A stretch of DNA of 64,000 bases from Pseudomonas phage PaBG. This document shows positions 4,161-43,549 of this stretch, piece after piece; within the stretch, counting starts at the first letter, position 1; every line of letters begins with the position of its first letter. A program made the position numbers and the translations under genes. Under the pieces are notes generated by a model that worked only from the letters and a program-made list of their open reading frames with translations, was not told the DNA's origin and ran no database searches. Location of the stretch: sequence record KF147891.1. One strand, 5' to 3'.

Positions 4161-4652
4161 ATGAACACTACGAACATGGAAAAACTCATCTGCTATGTCA
4201 ATCTTGACGGCAGTTACGGACGTGCAACTCGGTTACCCGAAGGAGCTCAGGAAGTAGGAGAAGAAGTCCTGCAGCTCCTTGAGGAGAACCCTGACCTGAT
4301 CGAAGTTCGCGTTGAGGGTGGTCTTATCCACGTCATCCCTTCGCTTATTTCCTACAAAGCGGAAGCCTGCGCTACTGTGCGTCGGGCGATCAACAAGCAA
4401 GTCCCTGGGGACGAACGCTTGAATCGCCTGATGCGTTCTACCGTGCTCGGCATTGGCTGTTTCGATGTCGAGTCCGGTTTGCTCCTTGATGAAAAGGAGA
4501 CGCGAGGCAATTTCCAAACCCTTGTGCAGTTGGACAACGACTTGCGCTACTTGGAGGCGAAATACGTCTCCAAGATCAACCAAGCGCCTGACGTGACCAC
4601 TGTGGATCATCACCTGGACGTATTCCAGAGAACTCTGCAAGGTACTGTATGA
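4161..4652 (+). CDS. hypothetical protein
   Basis: 163-aa ORF, start 4 nt after upstream stop, ATGA-type overlap with next gene. Confidence 0.5.
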   Translation: MNTTNMEKLICYVNLDGSYGRATRLPEGAQEVGEEVLQLLEENPDLIEVRVEGGLIHVIPSLISYKAEACATVRRAINKQVPGDERLNRLMRSTVLGIGCFDVESGLLLDEKETRGNFQTLVQLDNDLRYLEAKYVSKINQAPDVTTVDHHLDVFQRTLQGTV

Positions 4653-6028
4653 GCGTAAACGGTGTGTCCGACTCTCCTCTTTTGGAGAAAGCAGTCAACG
4701 GAGATCAGACAAGAGTGCCGATAGGCGCACCGGTGATTACAAACAACAAGAGCCAGATGTCGAAAAGCATCCAGCTCCTGACACCCGGTGCTGATCTCGT
4801 TACGCCTGAACTCACCCAGTTCGAGGCGTTCGGCGTGGAAGGCAAGGAGGCCTTCCGCAATGATAAAACCAAGGGCGTCGAGTTTCGTGACCGTACGTCC
4901 CCGAATGACAAGCTGATCGCGGAGTGGGCCTACGATCCTGTAGAGGGTTGTCTGGTACTGGTTCGCGTCAACAAGAAAGAAGAACGCATCTACGGGTTCC
5001 TGCGCCAAGAGTCGCTCGGTGTTGGTCCCACTGGTCCTCGCGGTAACCCTGGCAAAGACGGCCAAGACGGACGCGATGGGCGTGACGGTGCTGACGGTGA
5101 TCCTGGCTGCCCTGGCGATCCAGGTCCTCCCGGCGATGAGGGTTATCCTGGTGCTGAAGGTAATCCAGGCCTCATCGGTATTCAAGGTCCAGAGGGCTGT
5201 GAAGGTGCATCCGGCGATCGGGGTCTTGTAGGACCACAAGGTCGCCCAGGCTTCGAGGGTTCTCGTGGTCTGACGGGCCCCTCTTGCGCAGATGATCGGT
5301 TCGGCAACAAGGGCCCGCAAGGTATTGCGTTTGGCAAGGGTGTCTTGTTCGGCGCTGCGCAGCTTTCAAACCCGGAAGCTGCCATTGTTGGCTTGGACGA
5401 TGACGGCATCGACGCTGTTGCTCCTCCTGGCGGTTGGGACGGTTCTTCGACTCCACCTCCAACTTCGCAGCCGACAAACCCACCGCCACCGCCGACTGCC
5501 TCTGCTGGCATTTCTCTGTGTACGAATCACGGTAACGTCAAGAATAGTTGTGGCAATACCGTTAACGCGTGGTACTCGACATGGGCAAACTACGCGGCGC
5601 CCGGCGGTGCCAAGGGCCTGTCCACTCTGCCTATCGCTCGGCAGAACACGGCGTTCTGGCCGAACAGCATCGTCATGTGCGGCACGCTGCGTAAGAATGC
5701 GAGCTACACCTTTGAGCTGTCCACGCCAAACGGTGTCGCATCTTCTCTGTTCCTGAACTGCGCTATCGTCCTGCAGACAGATTACGTCGGCGGTACTTCC
5801 CGCAAGACCATGACCCTGACAGCAGATTCGTCGATTCGTCTGCGCTTCCTGAACAACGCCCCACGAATCCCGACGTGGTGCTCGTTGAAGATTTATGACG
5901 GTGCTACTGGTGCGTTGCTCTACAAGACAGGACAGAATGCACAGAATGCGGGCCTTTCTGGCGCAAACGCTTCCTACGTTATCGATCCTAACTGGAGAGG
6001 TAACGCTGCTGTTCAACAATACAACTAA
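4649..6028 (+). CDS. collagen-like (Gly-X-Y) fibre protein with Pro-rich linker and C-terminal globular domain
   Basis: About 60 uninterrupted G-X-Y triplets (GPTGPRGNPGKDGQDG...), then a 'STPPPTSQPTNPPPPPT' linker and a Cys-containing C-terminal domain. Confidence 0.7.
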   Translation: MSVNGVSDSPLLEKAVNGDQTRVPIGAPVITNNKSQMSKSIQLLTPGADLVTPELTQFEAFGVEGKEAFRNDKTKGVEFRDRTSPNDKLIAEWAYDPVEGCLVLVRVNKKEERIYGFLRQESLGVGPTGPRGNPGKDGQDGRDGRDGADGDPGCPGDPGPPGDEGYPGAEGNPGLIGIQGPEGCEGASGDRGLVGPQGRPGFEGSRGLTGPSCADDRFGNKGPQGIAFGKGVLFGAAQLSNPEAAIVGLDDDGIDAVAPPGGWDGSSTPPPTSQPTNPPPPPTASAGISLCTNHGNVKNSCGNTVNAWYSTWANYAAPGGAKGLSTLPIARQNTAFWPNSIVMCGTLRKNASYTFELSTPNGVASSLFLNCAIVLQTDYVGGTSRKTMTLTADSSIRLRFLNNAPRIPTWCSLKIYDGATGALLYKTGQNAQNAGLSGANASYVIDPNWRGNAAVQQYN

Positions 6029-6741: not shown

Positions 6742-7263
6742 ATGACAGGCTTGACAAGAGTTCCTCTGAAAATGATCGGTGCCTCAGGGCAGCCCGGCGA
6801 TGACGTTCGTTTCGACGGACGCGATGTCGCTGTGGTGCCCAGCACCGAGGACACGAACGACTACGGGCTCACCAGCGGTACGTATGACTCCATCGCTGGA
6901 CGCCTGACCCTGGTGCTGCGCAACGGCGCCCGCCTCGAACTCGACGGGTTCATCACCACTGGCGATATCGGCGTAGGCCCCGCTGGTCCGACAGGCCCCG
7001 CAGGCCGCGATGGTCGCGATGGCTTGAACGGCGTAGACGGCGAGAAGGGCGCCACTGGTTGCCAAGGCCCGGCCGGTCCTCCTGGTCGTCAAGGTCCTCG
7101 CGGTGAGCAAGGCATCCCAGGCCCCACGGGCCCCACAGGCGCTACCGGCCCAACAGGCCCGGCCGGGGAAGACGGCGTTCCGCAAATCTGGATTCAAACA
7201 GAAGACCCGGTCATCAAATCCGCAGATCACATAGTCCCCGGTGCATTGTGGGTGAAGCCGTAA
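6742..7263 (+). CDS. collagen-like fibre protein, 'M.GLTRVP' family
   Basis: N-terminus [12 protein letters not shown], about 35 G-X-Y triplets. Confidence 0.7.
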
Positions 7264-11923: not shown

Positions 11924-12376
11924 ATGGCTTTACCAGCGGCATACTACCAACTTGTCTATGATGAGAAGACAGGTGACGTGCTGTCGTTCTGGAACCCAAT
12001 GAGGGGCGAGTGTCCTGACTCGCCTTACATTGAAGTTTCCCTGGAGGACCACGCTCGCGTACAGCCTGCACCGTTCAAGTTCCGCGTCATCGATAAGCGC
12101 CTGGTTGAAGTGAGCGATATACCAAAAGATGAACGTCCGAAGCGTCCAGCTGTCTCCGAAGCGATCATCGCGGGTCTTGTAATCGACGGCGTGTGCTACG
12201 CGCTCGACCCGAAAGCTCTGGCTGTGTTGACGCTCGATCTGTCCAGAGGCTCCAAGACCTGCAGGGCAATCGCCCACACTCCGACAGGAAACCAACTGGT
12301 AACCCTGCCAAAGGAAGATGCCAAGAACGTAGCCTCGATGATAGCCGACCACTTGGTGGCTCTACATTGTGGATAA
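11924..12376 (+). CDS. hypothetical protein
   Basis: RBS AAGGAGAAAG, 150 aa. Confidence 0.5.
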   Translation: MALPAAYYQLVYDEKTGDVLSFWNPMRGECPDSPYIEVSLEDHARVQPAPFKFRVIDKRLVEVSDIPKDERPKRPAVSEAIIAGLVIDGVCYALDPKALAVLTLDLSRGSKTCRAIAHTPTGNQLVTLPKEDAKNVASMIADHLVALHCG

Positions 12377-12407
12377 TTTACTCGCAGTGTACATCGAGGT
12401 GTGAACC

Positions 12408-13229
12408 ATGTCTCTTCCTACTAGCAGGCTTATCCAGGCCGCCGTGGATCGCGGCCTGACTGTGGCCACGCCCGTTCTTCTCACCATGGACGGGCCGGAA
12501 CACATTCGCGTAAACGTCATCATCAGCCACGCGGAGCCCGTCTCTGTCGTGGCTCCTTTGGACTTGCTGTGGATTAACCCTGACACAGGCACTCCGCTGC
12601 GCCGTGTCAGTCGTGCCCAGTCGCAAGACTTCGTGCATACCTGGGAAGTCGCGGACGAGACATCGTTCTGGTTGGCTCAATCCTGGGATGAACCACGACC
12701 GAACGACCAAGACTTTCAGGAGCTCAACCGAAACATCGGCAACACGCACGGGCTGATCCTGGCCGATATCGGCGCGCTCGGTGTTGAAGGTGGAGACCTG
12801 ACAGGACCATTGCGTCCACGAGTCTTGGAAGTCGGAGACGACTACGCACCTACGGAAGCGGTACCTCGCTCGTTCGTCGAAAAGCTGACCATGGCGGCGC
12901 AAAGCCTAGCAGCTTCGGTTAGCCAACAGCTCACCAGCCTGCGTAACCAAGTTACGTCTGTGCGAAACCGCGTGACGGTAGTCGAAGACGAGTTGGAAAA
13001 CATCCAGCTCGGTGACGGCACGCCACGATACAAACATGACCAAGTGGAACCCTCACTTGAGTGGATCATCGTTCACAACCTACACGTACCGGACGTCACA
13101 GTTCGTGCCGTGCGGGAAGATGGGACGCTGATGATTCCAGCCACGGAAACAATGATCGATGAAGATACGCTGCGCCTGACGTTTGCCGAAGCTCGCCAGG
13201 GACGCGCCGTGATTCTCGGCATAAGGTGA
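12408..13229 (+). CDS. hypothetical protein with short heptad/coiled-coil segment
   Basis: RBS GAGGTG. 'LTSLRNQVTSVRNRVTVVEDELENIQ' coiled-coil-like. Confidence 0.5.
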   Translation: MSLPTSRLIQAAVDRGLTVATPVLLTMDGPEHIRVNVIISHAEPVSVVAPLDLLWINPDTGTPLRRVSRAQSQDFVHTWEVADETSFWLAQSWDEPRPNDQDFQELNRNIGNTHGLILADIGALGVEGGDLTGPLRPRVLEVGDDYAPTEAVPRSFVEKLTMAAQSLAASVSQQLTSLRNQVTSVRNRVTVVEDELENIQLGDGTPRYKHDQVEPSLEWIIVHNLHVPDVTVRAVREDGTLMIPATETMIDEDTLRLTFAEARQGRAVILGIR

Positions 13230-19828: not shown

Positions 19829-19840
19829 GACCGGGTAACT

Positions 19841-19884
19841 CCAAAAGGGGCTAAGGTCTAGGACTTTAGTCCCTTTTTCGTTTC
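19841..19884 (+). terminator. rho-independent terminator
   Basis: A-tract, 12-bp stem GGGGCUAAGGUC/GGACUUUAGUCCC with a 3-nt loop, then TTTTTCGTTTC. Confidence 0.75.
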
Positions 19885-19896
19885 TGGAGCCACGAT

Positions 19897-23396: not shown

Positions 23397-23404
23397 ACGC
23401 AACA

Positions 23405-23436
23405 GGCTGTGGAGCTGAGGCTCTACGGCCTTTTTG
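23405..23436 (+). terminator. rho-independent terminator
   Basis: 11-bp stem GGCUGUGGAGC/GCUCUACGGCC (two G-U pairs), loop UGAG, then TTTTT. Confidence 0.65.
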
Positions 23437-29297: not shown

Positions 29298-31197
29298 GCT
29301 CCTTCCAAAGCCGATTAAAACCCTGCGCGACGGGTATGTCGTATTGTTCAACGGCAAAATGATCGCGGACAGCGAACTGTACACTGAGTCCGGACAAAAA
29401 CTCAGCGATGCCAACTATCCGATGCCGAAGCTGACTACCACAGGAACTGTCGTCATTAGCGAGCTGTCCTACAAGGAACCTTCCGGAGATTCTCGCAATT
29501 CGTATGTGCAGACCACGTTCGTTGCAGACAACGGGCGTGTGGCCGAAGCCTGTAAACAACTTAACGACACGGGTACGAACTGGCGCGAGTTTCTGAGCGG
29601 CGAGGATCGCCACTGTTTCTATGTCTTCGGCATGGACAGTCCATTTCCTGCTGTATACACTGATACCAAAGGCAGCCAAGCTGGACGTATTAACGCACGC
29701 CACCAATCTTGTGCCCTCGATGTAACGGCCGAGACAACTTCGCGCGTGCTTGAGCCAAATCAGGTCATCAACTACGGAACCTCGACCAGTGCGCAATCTC
29801 CAAGTACCCCAGGTGCGTCCTACCTTGGTATGAGTCGCATCTTAGATGAATCCGACACTCGGTACCTGAGTCTAGTGGTGCAATTGAACGGTACTATGTC
29901 GGCATACGGTTCCTCGACATATTGCCCGACGTTGCAGACAGTACGCAAGGATTACTCCGTGCGCGACGCTGGGTATAACGCGACTACGGCTCCGTGTATT
30001 CCACTGTGGCACGATACTACGGACAAAGTGTTCTTTGCTTGGGAATTGTCGAATAGCCCGACAGCGTACGGGTTGGCAGGTGCAATTATTCGACCAATCG
30101 CTCTCCACTATAGTTCCGACATGGTGGCGACTCGCGTACAAGCTGGCTACACCGTGACATTGGACAGCTTCGTTAGCTCAACCATATCTGGATTCACCTC
30201 CAACAAGCCGTGGCGCACGCTACCAATCATTCGCGCTCTCAAGAAGGCCGATGGTCTCCTGACCGCGTTCATTCCGAATGTTCAGGGTATTGCTGGAACT
30301 GTTCAGACAAACCTCGTGGGCAGTGTTTCTCTGGACCGTGTCGAGTATAACTACGTCACGAAGACCTTTGGTTCCCGTATCCAGATGAACGTCGTTGATC
30401 CAGATACTGGCTTGACGCCCACCTGGGGCGAGAACATGGTTGTCGTCCGCGACTCCAACTGGGCGAACGCGAAGATGAACACTGGGGATAACTACCCTGC
30501 GCACTTCCAGTTCTCCTTCATGCACGAGGTAGATAACGAGACCTACGTCGTCATCCTTGTGACGGGCAACGGCATTCCCAGCCGCAACCGCAACAACAAC
30601 AATTTCCAGTATCCGACGAATACCGTGCAGTACACGTTGCGCTTGGATAAGGCAGACAAGACGAAAGCCTATCTGGTTGCCCGTGAAAATCTGGATGGCT
30701 TCTTTGGCACGCAGCGTTCGCTCTACTCGTTCGCGGGTACTCAAGATCACAGCAGCCTGTATTGCATTTGCGACAATGACGTGGTGCGCCTCGTGTTCGA
30801 TCAGACGCAATTGAAGTACGTCCTGTCCGACACTGTGATCGACGTGGATGCTGTTAGCCTGCTGGTCAAGGACAACGGCGACGTGTGGTTGATGGATCAG
30901 ATGCAGCGCGTGTACCAGATGCGCCAAAGCAACGCTGATCTGGTGCGCCTGCGCTTCGGCCAGGTGAATGACCGCTTCGTCGAGGCTCCGTATGACGTCC
31001 AGCTATTCGTCAGTGCGGCTAATTTCATGGGAGAGCTTGGTGCTAAACCCATTGAGCTGGTAATCGACGGACCTGCCGTGTTCAAAGCGAACAACGGCAA
31101 GAAACTCAACATCACCACGTCCGCAGCAGATGAGCTGGCTTTGCTCATCACTGTCACCGGATACGGTGAGATTTACGTGACACCCAGAGGATTGTGA
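29290..31197 (+). CDS. large virion protein (635 aa)
   Basis: ATG 29290 with GAGGTCG RBS (the track's 29248 start overlaps the upstream gene). No recognised domain. Confidence 0.55.
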   Translation: MRKLLPKPIKTLRDGYVVLFNGKMIADSELYTESGQKLSDANYPMPKLTTTGTVVISELSYKEPSGDSRNSYVQTTFVADNGRVAEACKQLNDTGTNWREFLSGEDRHCFYVFGMDSPFPAVYTDTKGSQAGRINARHQSCALDVTAETTSRVLEPNQVINYGTSTSAQSPSTPGASYLGMSRILDESDTRYLSLVVQLNGTMSAYGSSTYCPTLQTVRKDYSVRDAGYNATTAPCIPLWHDTTDKVFFAWELSNSPTAYGLAGAIIRPIALHYSSDMVATRVQAGYTVTLDSFVSSTISGFTSNKPWRTLPIIRALKKADGLLTAFIPNVQGIAGTVQTNLVGSVSLDRVEYNYVTKTFGSRIQMNVVDPDTGLTPTWGENMVVVRDSNWANAKMNTGDNYPAHFQFSFMHEVDNETYVVILVTGNGIPSRNRNNNNFQYPTNTVQYTLRLDKADKTKAYLVARENLDGFFGTQRSLYSFAGTQDHSSLYCICDNDVVRLVFDQTQLKYVLSDTVIDVDAVSLLVKDNGDVWLMDQMQRVYQMRQSNADLVRLRFGQVNDRFVEAPYDVQLFVSAANFMGELGAKPIELVIDGPAVFKANNGKKLNITTSAADELALLITVTGYGEIYVTPRGL

Positions 31198-31204
31198 TTC
31201 AAAG

Positions 31205-31220
31205 GGCACAAGGACGTGCC
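31205..31220 (+). promoter_or_regulatory. conserved palindromic intergenic element GGCAC-AAGGAC-GTGCC (copy 1)
   Basis: One of three copies of GCACA(A/G)GGACGTGC, each in an intergenic gap 20-45 nt upstream of a gene start. Confidence 0.5.
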
Positions 31221-31238
31221 TACAACTGAGACCCAACC

Positions 31239-31910
31239 ATGTTCAAAATACCAAGCATTTCGCCTTGGCCAGGTGACCGACCGGTAGAAAGCGAGTACAC
31301 GATTCTCAACGCGCAGGAGGGCGTCAACGGCATCTACCGAGTCTCAGGACCTGACGGTGAGGAGTTTGATGCCTACTGCGACATGACAACCGACGGCGGC
31401 CATTGGATTCTCATTGCCAGATGGGCCGCGTCTCCGAACAAGACGATTACATGGGGACAGGTTATCGTCAAAGACGCCTCACTGAACACTACGACCAATA
31501 GCGCTACTCTGTACCCTGTGATCCCCACAGGTGTCCGCAACGTGGCCAAGGAAGTGTTGTTCAAAAGTGCGGCTTCTGGCTGGGTTAGCCGATACGGCCA
31601 GTGGTTGAAATTCACCACTACGGATGATCCTGCCCTTGTCATCACTTCGACTGGCATTGATGCAATGCGTGGTAGTGATCGTGCGATTGTGAAGATGCAC
31701 GGTGAGAGTGCAGGCTGGGGAGGGAACACGTCGATGACCAACAACTTCTCGCTCTGGACACAATGGGGTAACGGCGGCCCATGTGGTGGTGCCGGCGTCT
31801 GCGGTTCTCAGAAGATTTGCCCAGTAATTAGAGCCAACTACAACTACAGTTGCCATTTCGATTTCTCCTCCGTGAAGCAACTGTTTATCAGAAGTCGTAT
31901 TCCTGAATAA
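31239..31910 (+). CDS. fibrinogen-related-domain (FReD)-like protein
   Basis: 'GIYRVSGPDGEEFDAYCDMTTDGGHWILIARW' matches the hallmark 'SG.Y.I.P.....F.VYCDM.TDGGGWTV.QRR' of fibrinogen C-terminal globular domains. Confidence 0.65.
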   Translation: MFKIPSISPWPGDRPVESEYTILNAQEGVNGIYRVSGPDGEEFDAYCDMTTDGGHWILIARWAASPNKTITWGQVIVKDASLNTTTNSATLYPVIPTGVRNVAKEVLFKSAASGWVSRYGQWLKFTTTDDPALVITSTGIDAMRGSDRAIVKMHGESAGWGGNTSMTNNFSLWTQWGNGGPCGGAGVCGSQKICPVIRANYNYSCHFDFSSVKQLFIRSRIPE

Positions 31911-31920
31911 AGAGGCAATC

Positions 31921-34900
31921 ATGCTTAGCCTGATTCCAAGACTAGCTCCATGGCCGCTAGTACGCGGAGACCTACGGAGTTATCCGACCCTACTAAGCAA
32001 GACTGCGTTTTCCGCAGTGCCGACAACTGGCCTGTCTGGCAGCATAGTCCAGCTAAGTCACTTGACGTACAAGCCCGAGACTGGCAAGCTATTCGTTCCA
32101 CTGCTGCACAGTGATCGGACTGGACGGCTGGCTGTTTATGACGTAGCCGGGAACTCGCTCACGCAAGCAGTGTCTTTTGCCGCAATGGGAGGCACAGGAG
32201 TGCTTCGTCCAGGCGCCCACCACACACTGAGCAGAACTGCCAGCGGGGCAGCATCCGGTAAAGTACCTGCAGTGGTCACATGGGGCACAACATCGACACC
32301 CTCTGGTATCGGTGTAGGTCTTTTCAACGAGACAGCCTCCGCCATCGAAGGGTTTACGACGTCCGCCGCGAGCATCGTCAGCAACCAGTCAAACTTGAAC
32401 TTGCAAGCGTCAATCATCATGAATGCCGCTGGTGACGTAGGGCTTGTGCAGTACATCGACGGACCAGACAGCACTCGCTATCTGAAATACAGGAAGGTCG
32501 TATACGATCAAGCCCAGGGCAAGCTAGTCGTCGGCACTGGCGCCCAAGAATTTGTAGGTCAGCAGCAGCCTGCAGTCGCCCGATACTACAAGGATTCCTT
32601 GTTTGTTGTGTGCGGGCTTGCCAGCTCAGGCAAAGCATTTGCGCAACTGCTCGATGTGTCTGGTGATGCTCCAGTACTGGTAGACTCCGCACCTGCGCTT
32701 AAGGCGAGTTCTCTAGCCTGGGGAAAAGCATCTATCGATGTCGTTGGGGACAATTTGGTCATCACGTATCTGGATGCAACTGGTGACCTTAACGCGGAGC
32801 TGTTCGCACTCTCCTCAACTTCCATTACGCGCAAGTCCACACAACCGCTGGGAGGCTTCACGACCTCCTCAGGTGTGCGCGATAGTATCGTTCTAGGTGA
32901 CACTGTATTCGCTCTGATCGTAACTGGCAACTCAGTAGACGTGGCGAAAACAACGATCGGTGCGCAAGGCGTAACGCGCTTCACCGTTGACCGTAACGTC
33001 ATGACGTTGGATGCCACGTATACGCAGGCGTACATGGCAAAGATCAGCGACACTCGATTGCTGTTCGTCAAAGCTGGCACCACCGGGGCGATGCAATACC
33101 AGTTTGTCGATTACGTGTGGCGTGTCGATCTGACTCCGTCCAAGGTGCTGGCCCAGTATCGGTTCTACGACGGTGAAGCCATCAACGAAGTCGGCGAACG
33201 CTTCGCTCTGCTGGGCTCTGGCGCTACAGTCGGCAATGGCCGCCTAAACACCACAACCAACACGACTTCGCGCATCGAGCAAGACCAGGTCTATTTCGGG
33301 CCTGACGATGATCTGACGATAGAGGCGATTGTAAAAGCAACGTCTTCCGGCAGTAACGGGTACTCTCCGATCTGCCAGTGGAACGTAGGCGGCTCCAACA
33401 ATAACTCCTGGGCCATGTCTGTCGTTAGCGGGCTCCTTCGCTTCTCGTGGTCTTCCAGTGGGTCTGCATCATCAACATACCTAACGTCAAACACGCCCGT
33501 CCCAACTGGCATCGAAACACACGTCGCGGTTGTTCGGAAAAACGGCGTGTTCCGACTGTACGTGGCTGGGCAGCAGCAAAACGAAACTTCGGTCGACGCT
33601 ACCGCTAACGCATTGAACACCAGACCAGTGTCCACGAGCTGGTCAGACACGACCGGTTGGTTGAACGGGTCACGAGGCAACATTCGGATCAGCCGCGAAG
33701 CGCTGTATGACGGAGATTTCCAACCTCCGACAGAACTGCCGACGATCACTCGTCCGACATACAGCGAACAAGATCAGGCTGCGTGTGTTTTCCAATTGGA
33801 TTTGCGCCGCGACAATCTGTTGGACGAGGTTACGGACAACCAAGTCACGTTCGTCAACGGTACCGCCCTGACGAATGGACGCATCGTCACGGTAAACAAT
33901 ACGACTTCGCAGTACACCTGCCAGAGCAAGAAGTTCGGTGAGGGTGATTTCACGGCTGAGCTGATGATCAACCTGCAAGCTGTCAGCGCAACGTACGGTG
34001 CTGTGATCATGGGCAACTGGCGTGCAGGCGGTGTAGCCAGTGACGAGAACCGTTGGTGCATCATCCTGGACAGTAATCGCAACATTGGCTTCAACATGGC
34101 CAGATCGGCCGACGCCAACGACTTCGCTTGGATGATGTCCTCGACGCCTGTTCCATTGAACGTGGACTGCCACATTGTAGCGGAGCGCGTAAATGGAGTC
34201 GTGACTCTCTACCTGAACGGCAGCCAGGTGGCGCAATCCAACGAGACTGATTTCAACTTCCCAATCCGCGGAGGTGAAGCCGGTTGGAAGGTGCACAGTA
34301 TCAGTTCTCAGGTTGCGTACACCGTGGGAATGCGCTGCTGGAATCTGCGCATCATGGACAAAGCCTACTACAATGGCGATGTCAAGCGCGAGAATGAATT
34401 CCCAGCGCTGTCTGTGAAAGAGTACGTCATAGTCAACGGCGCCTATCTGCACCCGGACTTCTCCCTGCAGGGTGGCGCTACTCAAACGGAAGTTGGCGTT
34501 GATATGACCGCTGGCAAATACATCTTGGGTACAGGATCGCCCAAGTATGTGTTCTACCGAGGCGATTTCACAGTCGAAGCAACGGTCACACCACGTAGCT
34601 TGGTCTACGGTACTGGTGCAGGTTCCGGTTCTGCTATAGTCCCTCTGTGGGCGTGCCATACCTGGGCTGCTCCTGGGCAGCCAGTGAACTGGGAACTATT
34701 CTTGAACTTAGGAACGAACCAGATTGCGTTCGGCACTTCCCATTCTGACTCTACGCTCAGTCGAACAATGCCTTACACATTCACTCTTGGCCAGCGCATA
34801 AACTTCAAGGTGGTGCGCCGCCGCAGTCAGATGTATGCCTTTGTGGACGACACGCTCGTAGGTGTGACCGACATGCCCTACAACATCGGATATGACATAA

Positions 34901-35010
34901 CACAGCCTCCGTTCATCGGACGCCGACGTGGTGGCGGTAGTGGTGAAGTGAATTGGTGGAACGACGTTCTTCTGGAGAAATTCATTATCACCAAGCGCGC
35001 CAAGATGTGA
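31921..35010 (+). CDS. giant LamG/ConA-like repeat protein (1029 aa), N-terminus MLSLIPRLAPWPL
   Basis: Repeated ~200-aa jelly-roll-like units ending 'CWNLRIMDKAYYNGDV' or 'LYDGDFQPP'. Units match those in the next gene. Confidence 0.7.
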   Translation: MLSLIPRLAPWPLVRGDLRSYPTLLSKTAFSAVPTTGLSGSIVQLSHLTYKPETGKLFVPLLHSDRTGRLAVYDVAGNSLTQAVSFAAMGGTGVLRPGAHHTLSRTASGAASGKVPAVVTWGTTSTPSGIGVGLFNETASAIEGFTTSAASIVSNQSNLNLQASIIMNAAGDVGLVQYIDGPDSTRYLKYRKVVYDQAQGKLVVGTGAQEFVGQQQPAVARYYKDSLFVVCGLASSGKAFAQLLDVSGDAPVLVDSAPALKASSLAWGKASIDVVGDNLVITYLDATGDLNAELFALSSTSITRKSTQPLGGFTTSSGVRDSIVLGDTVFALIVTGNSVDVAKTTIGAQGVTRFTVDRNVMTLDATYTQAYMAKISDTRLLFVKAGTTGAMQYQFVDYVWRVDLTPSKVLAQYRFYDGEAINEVGERFALLGSGATVGNGRLNTTTNTTSRIEQDQVYFGPDDDLTIEAIVKATSSGSNGYSPICQWNVGGSNNNSWAMSVVSGLLRFSWSSSGSASSTYLTSNTPVPTGIETHVAVVRKNGVFRLYVAGQQQNETSVDATANALNTRPVSTSWSDTTGWLNGSRGNIRISREALYDGDFQPPTELPTITRPTYSEQDQAACVFQLDLRRDNLLDEVTDNQVTFVNGTALTNGRIVTVNNTTSQYTCQSKKFGEGDFTAELMINLQAVSATYGAVIMGNWRAGGVASDENRWCIILDSNRNIGFNMARSADANDFAWMMSSTPVPLNVDCHIVAERVNGVVTLYLNGSQVAQSNETDFNFPIRGGEAGWKVHSISSQVAYTVGMRCWNLRIMDKAYYNGDVKRENEFPALSVKEYVIVNGAYLHPDFSLQGGATQTEVGVDMTAGKYILGTGSPKYVFYRGDFTVEATVTPRSLVYGTGAGSGSAIVPLWACHTWAAPGQPVNWELFLNLGTNQIAFGTSHSDSTLSRTMPYTFTLGQRINFKVVRRRSQMYAFVDDTLVGVTDMPYNIGYDITQPPFIGRRRGGGSGEVNWWNDVLLEKFIITKRAKM

Positions 35011-35017
35011 TCTATAC

Positions 35018-35033
35018 GGCACAGGGACGTGCC
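35018..35033 (+). promoter_or_regulatory. conserved palindromic intergenic element GGCAC-AGGGAC-GTGCC (copy 2)
   Basis: Same motif as copy 1. Overlaps the spurious GTG start of track ORF 35029. Confidence 0.5.
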
Positions 35034-35064
35034 ATTTCTATGTATTCAATTACGGGAGCATCCT

Positions 35065-38000
35065 ATGCTGAGTCTGATTCCGAGACTAGCACCTTGGCCT
35101 TTGCCGAGGGCATCCTCAGAGGTAAGTGACCTTTGGGTGCAATATCGATTTCTTGGCACTGAAGCCATTGATGAAGTTACGGATGCTGTAGCCACGCTCT
35201 ACGGAACCGCCACTTTGGCTGACGGTAAACTCGTGACTAACCCAGCGAGTCCTGCCAACTACGCGGCCATGAACAACATCATCTTCGACGCCAACGAAGA
35301 TTTCAACATAAGCCTGAACGTGAATATGCCGTTCAGCAACAGCCGTCCATACAACACTATTCTTGGTGTGTACACTTCGACCGCAGGTCCACGTGCTTGG
35401 GCTCTGGGTCGCATCGGTAACGACACTAACCCGTCGAAGCTCCACTTCGCCATGGTCTCAGGAGGTGTCAAATACGACTTCTACGGTCCCGTGCTGAACG
35501 CCGACACTGATTACCACATCGAAGTGTCGCGCACTCAGAACGTGCTGTACATCTTCGTAAACGGCAACTTGGAGCTGGCTACGCCTTTTGCCTTGGGCAA
35601 CGATCAGGCTTCTTTGCCCAGGATGCGTACCGACGTTATCCTCGCCGAGGGCCAGACGGCGACGCTCACGCACCACGGCGGCGGCTATAAGTGGGGCCTT
35701 CAGATTTTCAAAGGTAAGGGCGGTCATACGTCCAACTTTACGCCCGAAGCACCTGTCGAATACTCGCGCCCGTACTACACGGCAGACGTAGCACAAGACA
35801 TCAAGCTGCAACTTGGCATGCGCCGCGGTACTAAGGCGTGCGAAGCCTCTGGTGCCCAGTTAGCCTTGAACGGCACAGCGACCGTAGGTAAGAACGCTCG
35901 CTTATCTTTGACGAACGTAACGACCTCTTACGCGAGTATCCCGGTTGCCGCATTTGGAGAAGCCGACTTTACCATTGAGTTCATGTGTAACCTGAGCGCT
36001 GTGCATTCGACATATGGTAACCATTTCGGGCACATGTTTAGCTCGGTGAGCGCCAGCGAGGATAACCGCTGGATCGTTTGGGTGTCGCCTTCGGGTCGTC
36101 TGGGCTTTTCGATGAGCTTATCCGCGAACGCGAATGACACTGTAGGCACAGGTTCCGTAGAGGGTGCCTTCAAGTTCAACCGTGACAATCACATTGTTGT
36201 CCAGCGTAAGGATGGCGTCATCAAGCTCTACTTGAACAAACAAGAAGTGGCACAAATGGCACAAGCTGCACCCATCAGGGGCGGCGCTGGTGTGTTCCGC
36301 ACACAGTCGCTCAACGGTGCAACCTCGTGTGCCGGCCAGCTGTGGAACATTCGGATTGCTGACCGGGCACTCTACTCGGAACAGGTCAAGACCAAGCCAA
36401 CATTCCCGCAGTTCACCAAAGAATACGACCCCACGCTGTTCATGCAGTACACGTTCAGCTACGACGAAGCGATCAACGAAGTTACGGAGACGTTCGCGGC
36501 TCTCTCCGGCAACGCGGCCGTATCAAATGGCAGGTTGTCCACTGGGTCTTCGGCGAGCGACAACATGTCTACGCCTGCCACGTTGATCGAACCGAACGAA
36601 GACTTCACGTTGGAGGTGATGTTCAACTGCACCACGCATAACGTGAACATGCCGATTCTCGGTATCGTGGGTGGGAGTAACACAGGCGTATCCAAGAACG
36701 CATGGTACTTGCACTACGACGTTCCTGCTGCGGCATTTCGCTTCATGGTGTATGACGGTACTGGCGCCAGTGACATGGTGCAGTTCGCACGCCCCAACAT
36801 CTTCAATACTGACACGCACATCGCAATAGCCCGTAAAGGCGGTGTGATGACGCTGTTCATCGCGGGTCAGCCAGTTGCCAGCACACCAAGCATCAAAGGT
36901 AACGTGCCGACTTCTGTGCAGATGGGCACCACGTTCTCCTCAACGTACATGAACGGGACGCGAACAAACTTCCGTCTGGTGCGCGGACGCGCGCTGTACG
37001 ATTCCGCGTTCGAGCCTCCGGTAACGCTGCCTGTTGTAGGTCGTCCGACGTACACCCAGCAAGAAGCCGCTGCGACCAAAGCGCAGATCGATCTGCGCCG
37101 AGACAGTGCGCGAAACGATGCCAACGGACGCTCCGTTCAAGTTTATAGCTCGGCACGTCACGTTAGGGGCCGCATTCTTCATGCTGCCGCAACGTCGTCG
37201 TTCTACTACGCACCATGCGAGCCATTCGGAGCTGGTGATTTCACCATAGAGCTGGACTTTAACCTGACATCGATCAACGGCACGTACGGAGGTGCACTGG
37301 CCGGACAGTGGGTGCGAGGCAACGTAGCCTCAGAAGATAACTGCTGGCTGATCTATGTAGGACCAACCAGACTCATCCAGTTCGCCTGGGCCCGCAGTGC
37401 CGCAGCGAACGATTTCGACTTCATCGCGTCTGCGGCAGGCGTGTTTGATTTCAGCGCTGACTACCGTTTGGTTGTGGAGCGTATCGGGACCACGCTGACG
37501 ATCTACCTGAACAATGTCCAGGTTGCACAGGGTACGTGCGCGATCCCGTTGAGAACAAACGCTCCCCATTACGTGCGCAGTAACAGCTCGGCAAACCTAT
37601 ATGCGTTCGGCGGTTCTGTGTGGAATCTGCGCATTTCGGATCGTGCAGTGTACAACGGCAATGTAACGCGAGTCCCACTGTTCCCGAAAATGCCGAAAGC
37701 CGCCGAGTACACGGACCAGAGTCTGTTGAACGACATTGTTGTGCAGTGCGATATGAACGAAGGGAACGCACGCAACGCCAAGACAGGTGAAGTCATTACG
37801 TTCTCAGGTACGGGTGCGGCTATTCGTGAGCGCTTGGTGACGACACTTGCCAACACTTCGCGCTGGTATATCCCGTGCGGTCCGTTCAGTGCTGGCGATT
37901 TCACAATCGAGTTCGATTTGAACCTGCTGAGTTCCACTGGGGCTTCGTCTCGTCCGATCTTCGGTCAGTTCAGAGGTGACGTAGGACCAAACTCGTGGGT

Positions 38001-38760
38001 TTTCTACACCACGTCATCTGGTAACTTGGCGTTCCAGTGTTTGGGTGTAGATGCGTCATCGCTGAGTATCGACTCTCTCAATGGGCCTATCGAGAAGCGC
38101 ACGCTGACAGCAGGTAAAGAACATCACGTGGTTGTCGAGCGCAAGGCTGGCGTTGTGACCATGTACATCGATGGTGTTGTCATCGGCAGCGGAGCTTTCA
38201 CTGCACAGCTTGTGGACATGTCGGCGTATCCGTACATCACGAACCTGTACGATCTGTCCACGGCGAAGTATTGTGCCAGTGAGATTGGCAACGTGCGTAT
38301 TGCCAAGCGTGCCCTGTACAATGGTGTGATCACCAAAGCAAGGCTGCCGCTCGTCCCGAACCAGAAGCCTTCGTTGACTGCGAACATCGGTTCGGCGATT
38401 GGTACTCTGTCTGGTGCGTGCCAGAACTTGTATTACGGTGGCGTGCAAAGCTCGTTGGGTGCATTCAGCCATACGCTGTTCCGTGACATCCGCGATCCGC
38501 AGAACGTCAAGACTGTTCGCCTTGTTGCGCTCGCTCTCGACAGGACGTACACCGTGCTGGCGTGGCGAGAAGTGGATATGCCGCCGACCGCGGATATGCC
38601 GCAGTTCACCAACTCGTTGAAGATCGGGAACGCCGCACCTCTGCTGATCTCCAATTCGTCCGGCGCTAGTGTTGCAAATGGCGTCACGGGGCGGTATTGG
38701 TCTGGCAACCCGTTTGGTCCGTTGACACACGGAACTGCCATTCCATTCGAGTTTGTGTAG
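35065..38760 (+). CDS. giant LamG/ConA-like repeat protein (1231 aa), paralogue with identical N-terminus MLSLIPRLAPWPL
   Basis: GGGAG RBS before ATG 35065. At least 5 repeat units with 'SEDNRW', 'VW or LWNLRI.DRA.Y' and 'G....L(Y/F)...Q.VA'. Confidence 0.7.
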   Translation: MLSLIPRLAPWPLPRASSEVSDLWVQYRFLGTEAIDEVTDAVATLYGTATLADGKLVTNPASPANYAAMNNIIFDANEDFNISLNVNMPFSNSRPYNTILGVYTSTAGPRAWALGRIGNDTNPSKLHFAMVSGGVKYDFYGPVLNADTDYHIEVSRTQNVLYIFVNGNLELATPFALGNDQASLPRMRTDVILAEGQTATLTHHGGGYKWGLQIFKGKGGHTSNFTPEAPVEYSRPYYTADVAQDIKLQLGMRRGTKACEASGAQLALNGTATVGKNARLSLTNVTTSYASIPVAAFGEADFTIEFMCNLSAVHSTYGNHFGHMFSSVSASEDNRWIVWVSPSGRLGFSMSLSANANDTVGTGSVEGAFKFNRDNHIVVQRKDGVIKLYLNKQEVAQMAQAAPIRGGAGVFRTQSLNGATSCAGQLWNIRIADRALYSEQVKTKPTFPQFTKEYDPTLFMQYTFSYDEAINEVTETFAALSGNAAVSNGRLSTGSSASDNMSTPATLIEPNEDFTLEVMFNCTTHNVNMPILGIVGGSNTGVSKNAWYLHYDVPAAAFRFMVYDGTGASDMVQFARPNIFNTDTHIAIARKGGVMTLFIAGQPVASTPSIKGNVPTSVQMGTTFSSTYMNGTRTNFRLVRGRALYDSAFEPPVTLPVVGRPTYTQQEAAATKAQIDLRRDSARNDANGRSVQVYSSARHVRGRILHAAATSSFYYAPCEPFGAGDFTIELDFNLTSINGTYGGALAGQWVRGNVASEDNCWLIYVGPTRLIQFAWARSAAANDFDFIASAAGVFDFSADYRLVVERIGTTLTIYLNNVQVAQGTCAIPLRTNAPHYVRSNSSANLYAFGGSVWNLRISDRAVYNGNVTRVPLFPKMPKAAEYTDQSLLNDIVVQCDMNEGNARNAKTGEVITFSGTGAAIRERLVTTLANTSRWYIPCGPFSAGDFTIEFDLNLLSSTGASSRPIFGQFRGDVGPNSWVFYTTSSGNLAFQCLGVDASSLSIDSLNGPIEKRTLTAGKEHHVVVERKAGVVTMYIDGVVIGSGAFTAQLVDMSAYPYITNLYDLSTAKYCASEIGNVRIAKRALYNGVITKARLPLVPNQKPSLTANIGSAIGTLSGACQNLYYGGVQSSLGAFSHTLFRDIRDPQNVKTVRLVALALDRTYTVLAWREVDMPPTADMPQFTNSLKIGNAAPLLISNSSGASVANGVTGRYWSGNPFGPLTHGTAIPFEFV

Positions 38761-38765
38761 GACAA

Positions 38766-38783
38766 CAGCACAAGGACGTGCTG
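38766..38783 (+). promoter_or_regulatory. conserved palindromic intergenic element CAGCAC-AAGGAC-GTGCTG (copy 3)
   Basis: Third copy. 43 nt upstream of ATG 38826. Confidence 0.5.
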
Positions 38784-38825
38784 TACGGCAGCGTAATTTA
38801 CACGCATCAAAGAGGAGAATCCACA

Positions 38826-39518
38826 ATGCGTCAACTCCAAGTGTTTATGACTGCCGAGGCGCGTACCAAGGCAGAACAATTCTCCTACCAGAATATGGTA
38901 GGCGGGGAAATGCAATCGTTCGTGCATATGTTGCAGAAGCTGCACGAAACCGAAGTGCTCGACGGACATGGCACAGAGGCTACAAAGACTCTGCCGCGCC
39001 TCATGGAGATTTTCGAGCGCGCCCAAATTCAACCAGAAGATACTGCCGCTACCGCAGCAGGCAAACTCTGGGAACTCTACAGCAATCGACAAGCGATGAT
39101 CGAGGAGCGCGTTGCGTGCACCTTGCGCGACATCTTCCACAAGGCTGATCTGTCTCAGGTCACCTGCGTCGATCTGCCGAACACACAGAAGTTTCCGATC
39201 CAGGCGACGTTGCAAATGCGTCCGGGCTGGCAATTCTGTGTGGCTTATGATGCCCTGGGCGAGCTGAACTGTGGCGTCGGACAGTGGGTCGCGTTTAACT
39301 TGATGACCTCTCCGCATACCTGCAGCCGTGAAGTGCTGTTTGCTGTAAGTACACCCTACGGTCAGCTGGACTACAGCAAGGTCCACCAGCTCGCCCGTAA
39401 CTTCATCGAGGTGCTGCACAATGAAAATCGAGTTCAAGGTGATTCCGCCGGGACCACTGCACCAGCAGAAGTCCAACCTACCCAAGGGCAAACGCAACCG
39501 CTCCGGTGGAAAGACTAA
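38826..39518 (+). CDS. hypothetical protein
   Basis: AGAGGAGAA RBS before ATG 38826 (track start 38697 is upstream of the RBS). 230 aa. Confidence 0.5.
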   Translation: MRQLQVFMTAEARTKAEQFSYQNMVGGEMQSFVHMLQKLHETEVLDGHGTEATKTLPRLMEIFERAQIQPEDTAATAAGKLWELYSNRQAMIEERVACTLRDIFHKADLSQVTCVDLPNTQKFPIQATLQMRPGWQFCVAYDALGELNCGVGQWVAFNLMTSPHTCSREVLFAVSTPYGQLDYSKVHQLARNFIEVLHNENRVQGDSAGTTAPAEVQPTQGQTQPLRWKD

Positions 39519-43150: not shown

Positions 43151-43276
43151 TGTCACCGCTATGGTGCCGACCATCTGGTCTTCCACTCTTTGACCCGAGT
43201 CGTGGTATCTCGGAGATAGCGGATCACCTCCTGCTGCAAGAGCAGAGAGACAACCTCTCTAGCCCGCAACGATAAA

Positions 43277-43549
43277 TTACAGAGTGATCGCCATAGCAAC
43301 TGACGTGGTGATTCCACGAGAACTCAGGCGAGTCTCGAATGCGCGCTTGGACAGCCGTGCTGCCATGAGCATCGTCTTGAACCTGCCATAGTAACTCACG
43401 GCGTTCCTTTTCTTGGCTTCTTCCATGGCCTTCTGGACGAAGTAGATGTACTTGGCGTGATCACGGATCGAATGGATGGCTTCGATCTTCTCCATGAGGT
43501 TGGACAACACCCGTCGATCTTCGCCTGTCATGACATGCGCTTTGTTCAC
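43277..43549 (-). CDS. hypothetical protein
   Basis: 90 aa, last gene of the leftward unit. Confidence 0.45.
   Translation of the reverse strand: MNKAHVMTGEDRRVLSNLMEKIEAIHSIRDHAKYIYFVQKAMEEAKKRNAVSYYGRFKTMLMAARLSKRAFETRLSSRGITTSVAMAITL

Follow-up and report, generated by a model that had tools for sequence, protein, structure and literature searches.

The late genes of Pseudomonas phage PaBG raise a question of layout. In the 64-kb stretch of its genome analyzed here (the window), the plus-strand genes from position 1 to about 43 kb are very densely packed, and the only gaps longer than 12 nucleotides (nt) between 29 and 39 kb, i.e., 31198–31238, 35011–35064 and 38761–38825, each hold one copy of the same short palindrome. 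Is this element read as DNA or as RNA, and what recognizes it? The observations set out below are accounted for most simply by a strand-specific hairpin in RNA, not by a symmetric DNA operator. Judged by sequence and structure, its ANGGAY hexaloop closed by a C-G pair is the optimal site of the host CsrA-family proteins RsmA and RsmF/RsmN. The reading that we favor, with moderate confidence, is that the three hairpins (H1–H3) are host RsmA/CsrA-type binding sites that would control translation of accessory adhesin and glycanase genes.

Three hairpins with an RsmA-type loop

The core sequence GCACARGGACGTGC has exactly three exact matches in the window, at 31206–31219, 35019–35032 and 38768–38781, all on the plus strand. 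It is absent from 100 of 100 dinucleotide-preserving shuffles, i.e., none is expected, and a search that tolerates two mismatches adds just three further matches, which is chance level. An element in three copies, confined to intergenic gaps and missing from every other intergenic region of the window, is what the original prediction had claimed from the sequence, and both parts are borne out; a covariance model of the family finds no further copy in the window, the next best match scoring 12.9 bits (E = 0.9).

H1 (GGGCAC-AAGGAC-GTGCCT, 31204–31221 on the plus strand, loop 31210–31215) has a stem of 6 base pairs (bp) including one G-U pair and a folding energy of −8.7 kcal/mol. H2 (GGCAC-AGGGAC-GTGCC, 35018–35033, plus strand, loop 35023–35028) has 5 bp and −7.1 kcal/mol, and H3 (ACAGCAC-AAGGAC-GTGCTGT, 38765–38784, plus strand, loop 38772–38777) 7 bp and −9.7 kcal/mol. 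Minimum free energy and centroid folds of the local RNA both contain all three hairpins, which share a six-base loop with GGA at loop positions 3–5 on stems of 5–7 bp. Their mutual identity is 93–100%, as compared with 60–76% for the surrounding paralogous coding DNA.

The stems start 4–7 nt past the upstream stop codon (TGA, TGA and TAG for H1, H2 and H3, respectively). H1 lies 6 nt past the TGA of a gene for 635/649 amino acids (aa) and ahead of a 223-aa gene, H2 lies 7 nt past the TGA of a 1029-aa LamG gene and ahead of a 1231-aa LamG gene, and H3 lies 4 nt past the TAG of the latter and ahead of a 230-aa gene. From the end of the stem to the next ATG the distance is 17 nt for H1 (ATG at 31239), 31 nt for H2 (35065) and 41 nt for H3 (38826), close to the 20–45 nt that had been predicted, with H1 falling just below that range.

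The consensus obtained for P. aeruginosa RsmA and RsmF by in vitro selection (SELEX) is 5'-CANGGAYG, with GGA presented in a hexaloop. All three PaBG copies agree with it, reading CAAGGACG in H1 (31209–31216, plus strand) and H3 and CAGGGACG in H2, inside ACA...GU; furthermore, ACAAGGACGU agrees with the SELEX consensus of E. coli CsrA, RUACARGGAUGU, in which a short stem carries GGA in its loop (PMC2896534). Without regard to structure, CANGGAYG is no commoner in the window than expected (16 occurrences observed, 24 ± 5 expected), and among these sites stems of at least 5 bp are found only at the three intergenic copies. The C-[ANGGAY]-G loop with its closing pair escaped the original prediction, and its identification as an RsmA/RsmF motif assigns to the element a more specific, testable function.

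The host P. aeruginosa has both RsmA and RsmF/RsmN. A tblastn search for a CsrA homologue, covering the window and the related loci, gave no match with E under 0.5, and PaBG is not among the csrA-positive phages of a 2020 survey (PMC7366521). With no phage-encoded CsrA found, the candidate binder is host RsmA and/or RsmN.

In a permissive Rfam search of 31000–39000 against 4227 families, the single match with E ≤ 10 was RsmV (RF04320), contributed by H2, and H1 aligns to positions 162–177 of the RsmV model; with 10.7–16.1 bits against a gathering score of 100 bits, these matches are far from significant and serve as a pointer only. RsmV is a P. aeruginosa small RNA (sRNA) that sequesters RsmA and RsmF, and its hairpins are functional RsmA/RsmF sites. 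Rfam at the gathering threshold and a tRNA scan returned no match. An identity of the PaBG element as an Rsm sponge sRNA was rejected because there is no Rfam gathering-level match and the copies are 3.7–3.8 kb apart inside coding operons; likewise, a match of H3 to the Rfam family 'freshwater-2' (E = 1.9 in a 91-nt search) reflects only the hairpin and the Shine-Dalgarno sequence.

Conservation and covariation in PaBG-like phages

Relatives were retrieved through homologues of the 1231-aa LamG protein, which gave syntenic loci of uncultured PaBG-like phages with 28–49% amino-acid identity as well as two near-identical strains, L128 and L234, and every intergenic gap of the related loci was read for hairpins. 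Thirteen further copies were found at equivalent junctions of PaBG-like metagenomic phages, among them GGCAC-AAGGAT-GTGCT and CGCAC-AATGAC-GTGCG in L121, GGCAC-ACGGAC-GTGCT and TGCAC-AAGGAT-GTGCG in L124, TCAC-AAGGAT-GTGA and GCC-AAGGAC-GGC in L122, GAGGAC-AAGGAT-GTCCTT in L132, GAGAGC-AAGGAA-GCTCTC in L133, and TGCAC-AAGGAC-GTGCA, AGCAT-AAGGAA-GTGCT and AGCC-AAGGAT-GGCT in L134. The genes that they flank encode LamG adhesins, GH5 'cellulases' and the conserved 230-aa protein. Every copy in the relatives is intergenic and on the coding strand; the stem starts 4–14 nt past the stop codon in 13 of 14 cases, and the distance to the next start reaches 135 nt. The same hairpins are present in strain L234, which at 98.7% identity carries little information on conservation. 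A scan of IMG/VR with the 1231-aa protein yielded no relatives, one with the bare 14-mer yielded single, apparently random occurrences among the matches listed, and a metagenome scan with a profile of the 230-aa protein returned one 1.2-kb contig only.

In an alignment of 16 copies (A3), the loop has A1, G4 and A5 without exception and G3 in 15 copies, and position 2 is free; at position 6, C or U is seen in 14 copies and G in none (0/16). The closing pair is C-G in 15/16 and the second pair A-U in 13/16. Within the stem, 93.8% of the cells are paired and four of the five pairs show compensatory changes, with GCAC/GTGC, TCAC/GTGA, GGAC/GTCC, GAGAGC/GCTCTC and AGCC/GGCT as variants. None of 500 shuffles reached the observed pairing values, controls in which the register was slid are 15–45% paired, and RNAalifold independently predicts the same helix from A3. 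The strict CANGGAYG sequence is present in 11 of the 16 family members, the remaining ones reading CAAGGAAG, TAAGGAAG or CAATGACG; the positions conserved in the family are those fixed in the CsrA/RsmA consensuses, and the variable position is the free N. In 13 of 14 copies a second GGA, usually within the Shine-Dalgarno sequence, follows 10–52 nt downstream of the loop GGA and ahead of the next start.

The element does not occur at a comparable rate in coding sequence. In a less biased count, which covered 203 kb of sense strand in ten PaBG-like loci, C-[ANGGAN]-G hairpins with stems of at least 4 bp number 13, and 12 of these are intergenic, where intergenic DNA makes up 2.8% of the sequence (binomial P = 3e-18, for loci that are not independent of one another). 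The sole coding-region hairpin of this type lies at 4834–4859 of the window (GGAAGGC-AAGGAG-GCCTTCC, with a 9-bp stem counting G-U pairs) inside a tail-fiber-like gene at 4649–6028.

The first inspection had proposed either a site for a dimeric DNA-binding protein such as a late activator, or a conserved RNA stem-loop with a processing or stabilizing role. The former predicts conserved half-sites and a free spacer, and the opposite is observed: the spacer is conserved, the half-sites covary and the orientation relative to transcription is the same in 16/16 copies, which is the reverse of what is expected for a dimeric operator. The stem-loop is supported by the covarying arms, by the conserved 6-nt 'spacer', i.e., the loop, and by the restriction to the coding strand, whereas the generic processing or stabilizing role that went with it is less specific than the match to the RsmA/RsmF motif. 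Conservation in PaBG-like relatives, the other point on which the original prediction depended, was found as well.

Further observations were made at some of the related loci. L132 has tandem GGA hairpins at 1589–1645, GAGGAC-AAGGAT-GTCCTT and GAGC-AGGAC-GCTC, followed by the Shine-Dalgarno sequence UAGGAG, so that three GGA occur within about 45 nt, an arrangement reported as needed for RsmF/RsmN binding. The GH5 cellulase leaders of L126 (17227–17276) and L135 (18212–18264) contain a 3-bp CCC-AAGGA-GGG pentaloop hairpin and two more GGA; this hairpin, undetected by the covariance model, may correspond to the hexaloop hairpin in degenerate form. Nucleotides 894–1120 of L128, a contig from activated sludge, are 87–92% identical to 31206–31332 and 38680–38905 of the window. 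In this contig H1 and H3 are 205 nt apart, the 7.4-kb cassette with the 223-aa, 1029-aa and 1231-aa genes is gone and a 53-aa fusion open reading frame is left; the junction is at a short GGCGTCA microhomology, and at the low coverage of the contig an assembly artefact is possible. Compared with L124 (12995–13069), L121 (13031–15730) carries two extra genes, encoding a 641-aa LamG protein and a 223-aa protein, inserted exactly within a GCGTAATTTAC box, and at the right-hand junction the box is restored by the TAA stop codon with which the inserted 223-aa gene ends.

Proposed RsmA binding and its alternatives

From the loop, the stem and their placement we infer binding by RsmA or another CsrA-family protein, which would proceed as follows. 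H1–H3 would be carried as RNA hairpins in late polycistronic PaBG mRNA. One face of the RsmA dimer would dock on the hairpin just past the upstream stop codon, and the other face would capture a GGA 10–52 nt downstream, within the next gene's Shine-Dalgarno sequence. Candidate second sites are the Shine-Dalgarno sequences GGGAG of the 1231-aa gene (35054–35058, plus strand) and GAGGAG of the 230-aa gene (38812–38817, plus strand), the GGA of which are 30 and 40 nt downstream of the loop GGA in H2 and H3, respectively. Such a bridge would hinder binding of the 30S subunit and lower initiation on the downstream accessory gene. Translation of the adhesin, glycanase and neighboring genes would then be set by free RsmA, i.e., by the Gac/Rsm state as reflected in the levels of the sponge RNAs RsmY/Z/V/W, and this control would be independent of transcription of the long late operon.

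Several points weigh against this reading. H1 has no GGA between the hairpin and the start codon, and one family member, L121_B with the loop AATGAC, has lost the GGA of the loop itself. Also, a second GGA discriminates poorly, because Shine-Dalgarno sequences tend to contain GGA anyway. A promoter-like box separates H3 and its orthologues from the next gene, so that transcripts starting there would lack the hairpin and copies of the H3 type look like 3'-end elements of adhesin genes. Cassettes have copies at both ends, which is more than a model of repression purely through the 5' leader calls for, and the reported RsmA peaks from crosslinking and immunoprecipitation are around start codons, not stop codons. 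The covariance model detects no copy in the more distant relatives L126, L127, L130 and L135 or in 92 kb of Lu11, nor around the adhesin gene of the P. aeruginosa jumbo phage PA5oct, whose adhesin is related. The PaBG counts refer to the window, which is 25% of the genome, and a walk outward from it added no more than 2.8 kb of a PaBG-like strain. The A3 copies were partly gathered by looking for hairpins and some of the loci are close relatives, which inflates the pairing statistics and overstates independence; and the metagenomic relatives may infect other hosts. These weak points keep alive a rival in which the hairpin is a processing or stability element recognized by another factor.

According to this rival, which has a small though appreciable probability, adhesin and glycanase messages within the late transcript are processed individually, with the hairpins at their 5' and 3' ends, and the conserved loop is read not by RsmA but by a phage-encoded or other host RNA-binding protein or endoribonuclease. 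It would account for the flanking of accessory genes by a copy on each side (H1/H2/H3 in PaBG, A/B in L121 and L124, B/C in L134, C/D in L122), for the fact that 13 of 14 copies follow a stop codon by 4–14 nt, and for the H3-type copies, which precede the promoter-like box and so end the upstream message; a T-run follows L134_C. Generic stabilizers, however, need no conserved loop, and the conserved positions match the CsrA/RsmA consensus one-for-one. Moreover, exonucleases would be little hindered by stems of 3–7 bp (−3 to −10 kcal/mol), no candidate phage RNA-binding protein was found, and the window and the related loci are devoid of a CsrA homologue.

A weaker rival, which we regard as improbable, is that the hairpin mimics a Shine-Dalgarno sequence: the AAGGA loop would pair with the 3' end of 16S rRNA and hold terminating ribosomes or provide a standby site for the 30S subunit, with efficient translation of genes that start after non-overlapping operon gaps as the effect. 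The AGGA/GGA core of the loop is indeed complementary to the anti-Shine-Dalgarno sequence, the hairpins stand just past stop codons and ahead of genes that are not translationally coupled, and the gene after H1 is itself preceded by no more than a weak Shine-Dalgarno sequence. On the other hand, G is never found at loop position 6, where GGAG would extend the pairing, the conserved C-G closing and A-U second pairs are irrelevant to rRNA and part of the CsrA consensus, and most of the downstream genes have a good Shine-Dalgarno sequence 10–50 nt further on.

An element acting in the DNA, either as a palindromic operator of a dimeric late activator or repressor or as a short homology for the exchange of adhesin cassettes, is very unlikely. 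The perfect GCAC/GTGC dyad with its fixed 6-bp spacing in PaBG would suit an operator; in the wider family it is the asymmetric spacer that is conserved, the half-sites undergo compensatory changes and the orientation is uniform, and there is no sigma-70-like promoter at the three sites. Exchange would be in line with bracketed genes that differ in number and type between relatives, and with the L128 variant, which keeps H1 and H3 without the 7.4 kb between them, but the L128 deletion has its end-points inside genes and the insertion that distinguishes L121 from L124 is joined at the TAATTTA box, neither being at a hairpin.

Weak intrinsic terminators or attenuators that reduce read-through into accessory genes are just as hard to credit: the hairpins do directly follow stop codons, TTTTATTTT follows L134_C and the CsrA-bound hairpin of ColE7 is at the same time the terminator T1 (PMC2896534), but evident terminators of these phages have GC-rich stems of 10–13 bp with runs of five or more T, and termination leaves the conserved loop unexplained. 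That the elements are not ordinary terminators had been foreseen and stands; the accompanying statement that no U-tract follows them is correct for H1 and H3, but the tail of H2, ATTTCTATGT, is T-rich and was picked up by a lenient terminator scan with a chance-level yield (10 as compared with 9.1 in shuffled sequence).

Other known signals were considered and rejected. A lambda-type nut site has a boxA (CGCUCUUA-like) a few nucleotides upstream of a 5-bp hairpin with a GNRA-like pentaloop. In PaBG the upstream sequences GAUUCAAAGG, GAUCUAUACG and UAGGACAACA are without boxA, and the loop is the hexaloop ANGGAY. For a selenocysteine insertion (SECIS) or read-through signal the upstream stop codons do not fit, being TGA, TGA and TAG in PaBG and mostly TAA in relatives, and as for recoding, the reading frame beyond the first stop runs for 29 codons and is not that of the next gene. 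A target hairpin of a diversity-generating retroelement was dismissed since there is no pair of template and variable repeats, the long repeats in 29–40 kb being only paralogous coding sequence of 60–76% identity. Finally, the hairpin is not part of a TAATTTA promoter, because the spacing is inconsistent and the box is usually downstream of the hairpin or absent.

Gene setting and comparison with known systems

PaBG is a jumbo myovirus of P. aeruginosa with a 258-kb (258,139-bp) genome; it has a sigma-70-like factor and no RNA polymerase of its own, and its genome paper is silent on promoters, terminators and hairpins (PMC7412058). Distant cultured relatives are Lu11, HRDY3 and Erwinia/Dickeya jumbo phages. 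The neighborhood is a late tail, adhesin and lysis module with genes for tail sheath, tail-fiber-like, LamG, holin, endolysin and NUDIX proteins. The 223-aa gene downstream of H1 (31239–31910) is followed after a 10-nt gap by the 1029-aa LamG gene (31921–35010), which has no hairpin of its own and whose product is 100% identical to the 'putative adhesin' recorded for Pseudomonas phage PaBG. The gene of its 1231-aa LamG adhesin paralogue (35065–38760) has H2 and H3 on either side, and the conserved 230-aa gene (38826–39518) comes after H3 and a promoter-like GTAATTTA box (38793–38800), a putative middle/late promoter element; all of these are on the plus strand. At the DNA level, megablast of 29–40 kb against the phage collection gave no match, and a look-up of the 223-aa protein by its exact sequence retrieved no record. 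The LamG domains named in the original prediction are solid, whereas the fibrinogen-related domain that it assigned to the 223-aa protein is not, the weak fibrinogen-C-like match (Pfam Fibrinogen_C, E = 0.0017) being below the curated cut-off.

A shared N-terminal motif of the MLSLIPxxxPWP type opens all LamG adhesin paralogues and the 223-aa gene (MLSLIPRLAPWP, MFKIPSISPWP in the 223-aa protein, and MLGLIRKFAQWPWP). It is found at the gene starts 31239, 31921 and 35065 and also in L121, L122, L124, L126, L127, L133, L134 and L135, and the common sequence suggests a virion-docking module on interchangeable receptor-binding proteins.

The RTAATTTA box occurs only three times in 64 kb, at 12373–12380 and 38793–38800 on the plus strand and at 43273–43280 on the minus strand, each time intergenic and pointing to the downstream gene. 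It is kept at the same junctions in relatives, often as cTGTAATTTA and then CAC, and resembles CTGTAAATA, annotated as 'putative middle/late promoter' in phage Lu11; by this resemblance it is probably a middle/late promoter of the PaBG-like clade. A canonical intrinsic terminator with a long GC-rich stem and a T5 run stands directly after the tail sheath gene (19829–19896) and is kept in all relatives; a second terminator and a TAATTTA box come after the 175-aa gene in relatives, where PaBG has only a short gap (23397–23433). Within the tail-fiber gene block, an HNH-endonuclease-like gene at 12408–13229 (phrog_24148, E = 4e-105), preceded by a TAATTTA box, may be a homing endonuclease insertion.

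Similar hairpins were also encountered outside the PaBG group. The 16-mer GGCACAGGGACGTGCC occurs twice, 528 nt apart, in three IMG/VR contigs of 47% GC that are unrelated to PaBG: at 7143 and 7671 in L148, at 4108 and 4636 in L149, and at 2940 and 3468 in L150, positions in L148 and L149 being counted on the reverse complement (minus-strand equivalents 6103/6631 and 6640/7168). Each copy precedes, by 6–8 nt, an AGGAG Shine-Dalgarno sequence, with the ATG of a small gene after it. In the viral contigs L140, L146, L147 and L228, GGCACAGGGACGTGCC is present once, 15–25 nt ahead of a start codon. In the E. coli lambdoid prophages L154, L159, L164, L170, L205 and L216, GGCAC-AGGGAC-GTGCC stands 7 nt past a TGA and is followed by TTTAAATAATT; L154 is 98.8% identical over about half of the query to Escherichia phage TL-2011b near the ant/arc region. 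CsrA-type leader hairpins, as recognized by their sequence, may thus be widespread in phages beyond the PaBG group.

Mapped targets of CsrA/RsmA, the master post-transcriptional switch between motile/acute and biofilm/chronic life in Pseudomonas and many other Gram-negative bacteria, lie on host chromosomes and on a few plasmids. Our literature search returned phage-borne csrA genes and prophage induction under CsrA control, and no description of CsrA-type sites on structural mRNAs of lytic phages. The novelty lies in the setting: a lytic jumbo phage whose late operon has several copies on either side of its adhesin and glycanase genes, with conservation and covariation of the element throughout a clade. 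If RsmA binds, a jumbo phage wires part of its virion program, namely genes of adhesion and degradation, into the host switch, which would matter for phage therapy of biofilm infections. A bolder proposal, which we consider speculative and rather unlikely, is that PaBG-like phages read the Gac/Rsm state through RsmA-binding hairpins and so choose which of the paralogous adhesins and glycanases are translated. In that event, adhesins with the MLSLIPxxxPWP anchor may compete for one docking site on the virion, and the progeny would carry receptor-binding proteins suited to the surface-polysaccharide state of neighboring cells, i.e., a phenotypic, host-informed switch of tropism.

Four known systems invite comparison. 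The promoter-early stem-loop (PeSL) elements, reportedly described by Arbiol and colleagues in 2010 as mobile regulatory cassettes of T4-type phages, are likewise short, conserved and regulatory; they include a promoter box and a stem-loop and are found repeatedly between accessory genes that vary. They differ from the PaBG-type elements in that the rearrangement junctions observed for the latter are away from the hairpin, the stems covary and the loop fits a protein-binding consensus; this covariation and loop match point to a function in RNA rather than in recombination.

RsmV, and also RsmY, RsmZ and RsmW, present the same module: the RsmV hairpin GACAC-AgGGAU-GUGUC aligns base for base with H1 and H2 and has the same 5-bp stem and ANGGAY hexaloop. 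In RsmV such hairpins are clustered in a non-coding RNA of about 190 nt, whereas the phage copies are single and spaced by 3.7–3.8 kb in mRNA. The likeness is one of a single module and does not amount to homology with the sRNA.

The sites of RsmA/RsmF and of E. coli CsrA correspond to the PaBG hairpins in sequence (CAAGGACG, CAGGGACG), in the size of the hexaloop with GGA at positions 3–5, in the C-G closing and A-U second pairs, and in their location in untranslated RNA ahead of a start codon. As a rule, known sites belong to chromosomal genes and lie on or right beside the Shine-Dalgarno sequence; by contrast, the sites predicted for PaBG directly follow the preceding stop codon, 17–41 nt from the next start, in the late operon of a lytic jumbo phage with genes bracketed on both sides.

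By analogy of layout, the cel gene of the ColE7 cea-cei-cel operon is the closest worked example. There, CsrA represses translation of cel and leaves mRNA decay unchanged, and for binding it depends on two sites together, the loop of the intercistronic T1 stem-loop and the Shine-Dalgarno sequence (PMC2896534). The cei-cel junction, too, belongs to a polycistronic operon on an extrachromosomal element and has the same order of stop codon, GGA-loop hairpin, Shine-Dalgarno GGA and start codon, and unlike the PaBG copies its hairpin doubles as a true terminator, T1 (PMC2896534). ColE7 controls one lysis gene of a plasmid in this way, whereas in PaBG the corresponding arrangement would concern several virion adhesin genes of a phage.

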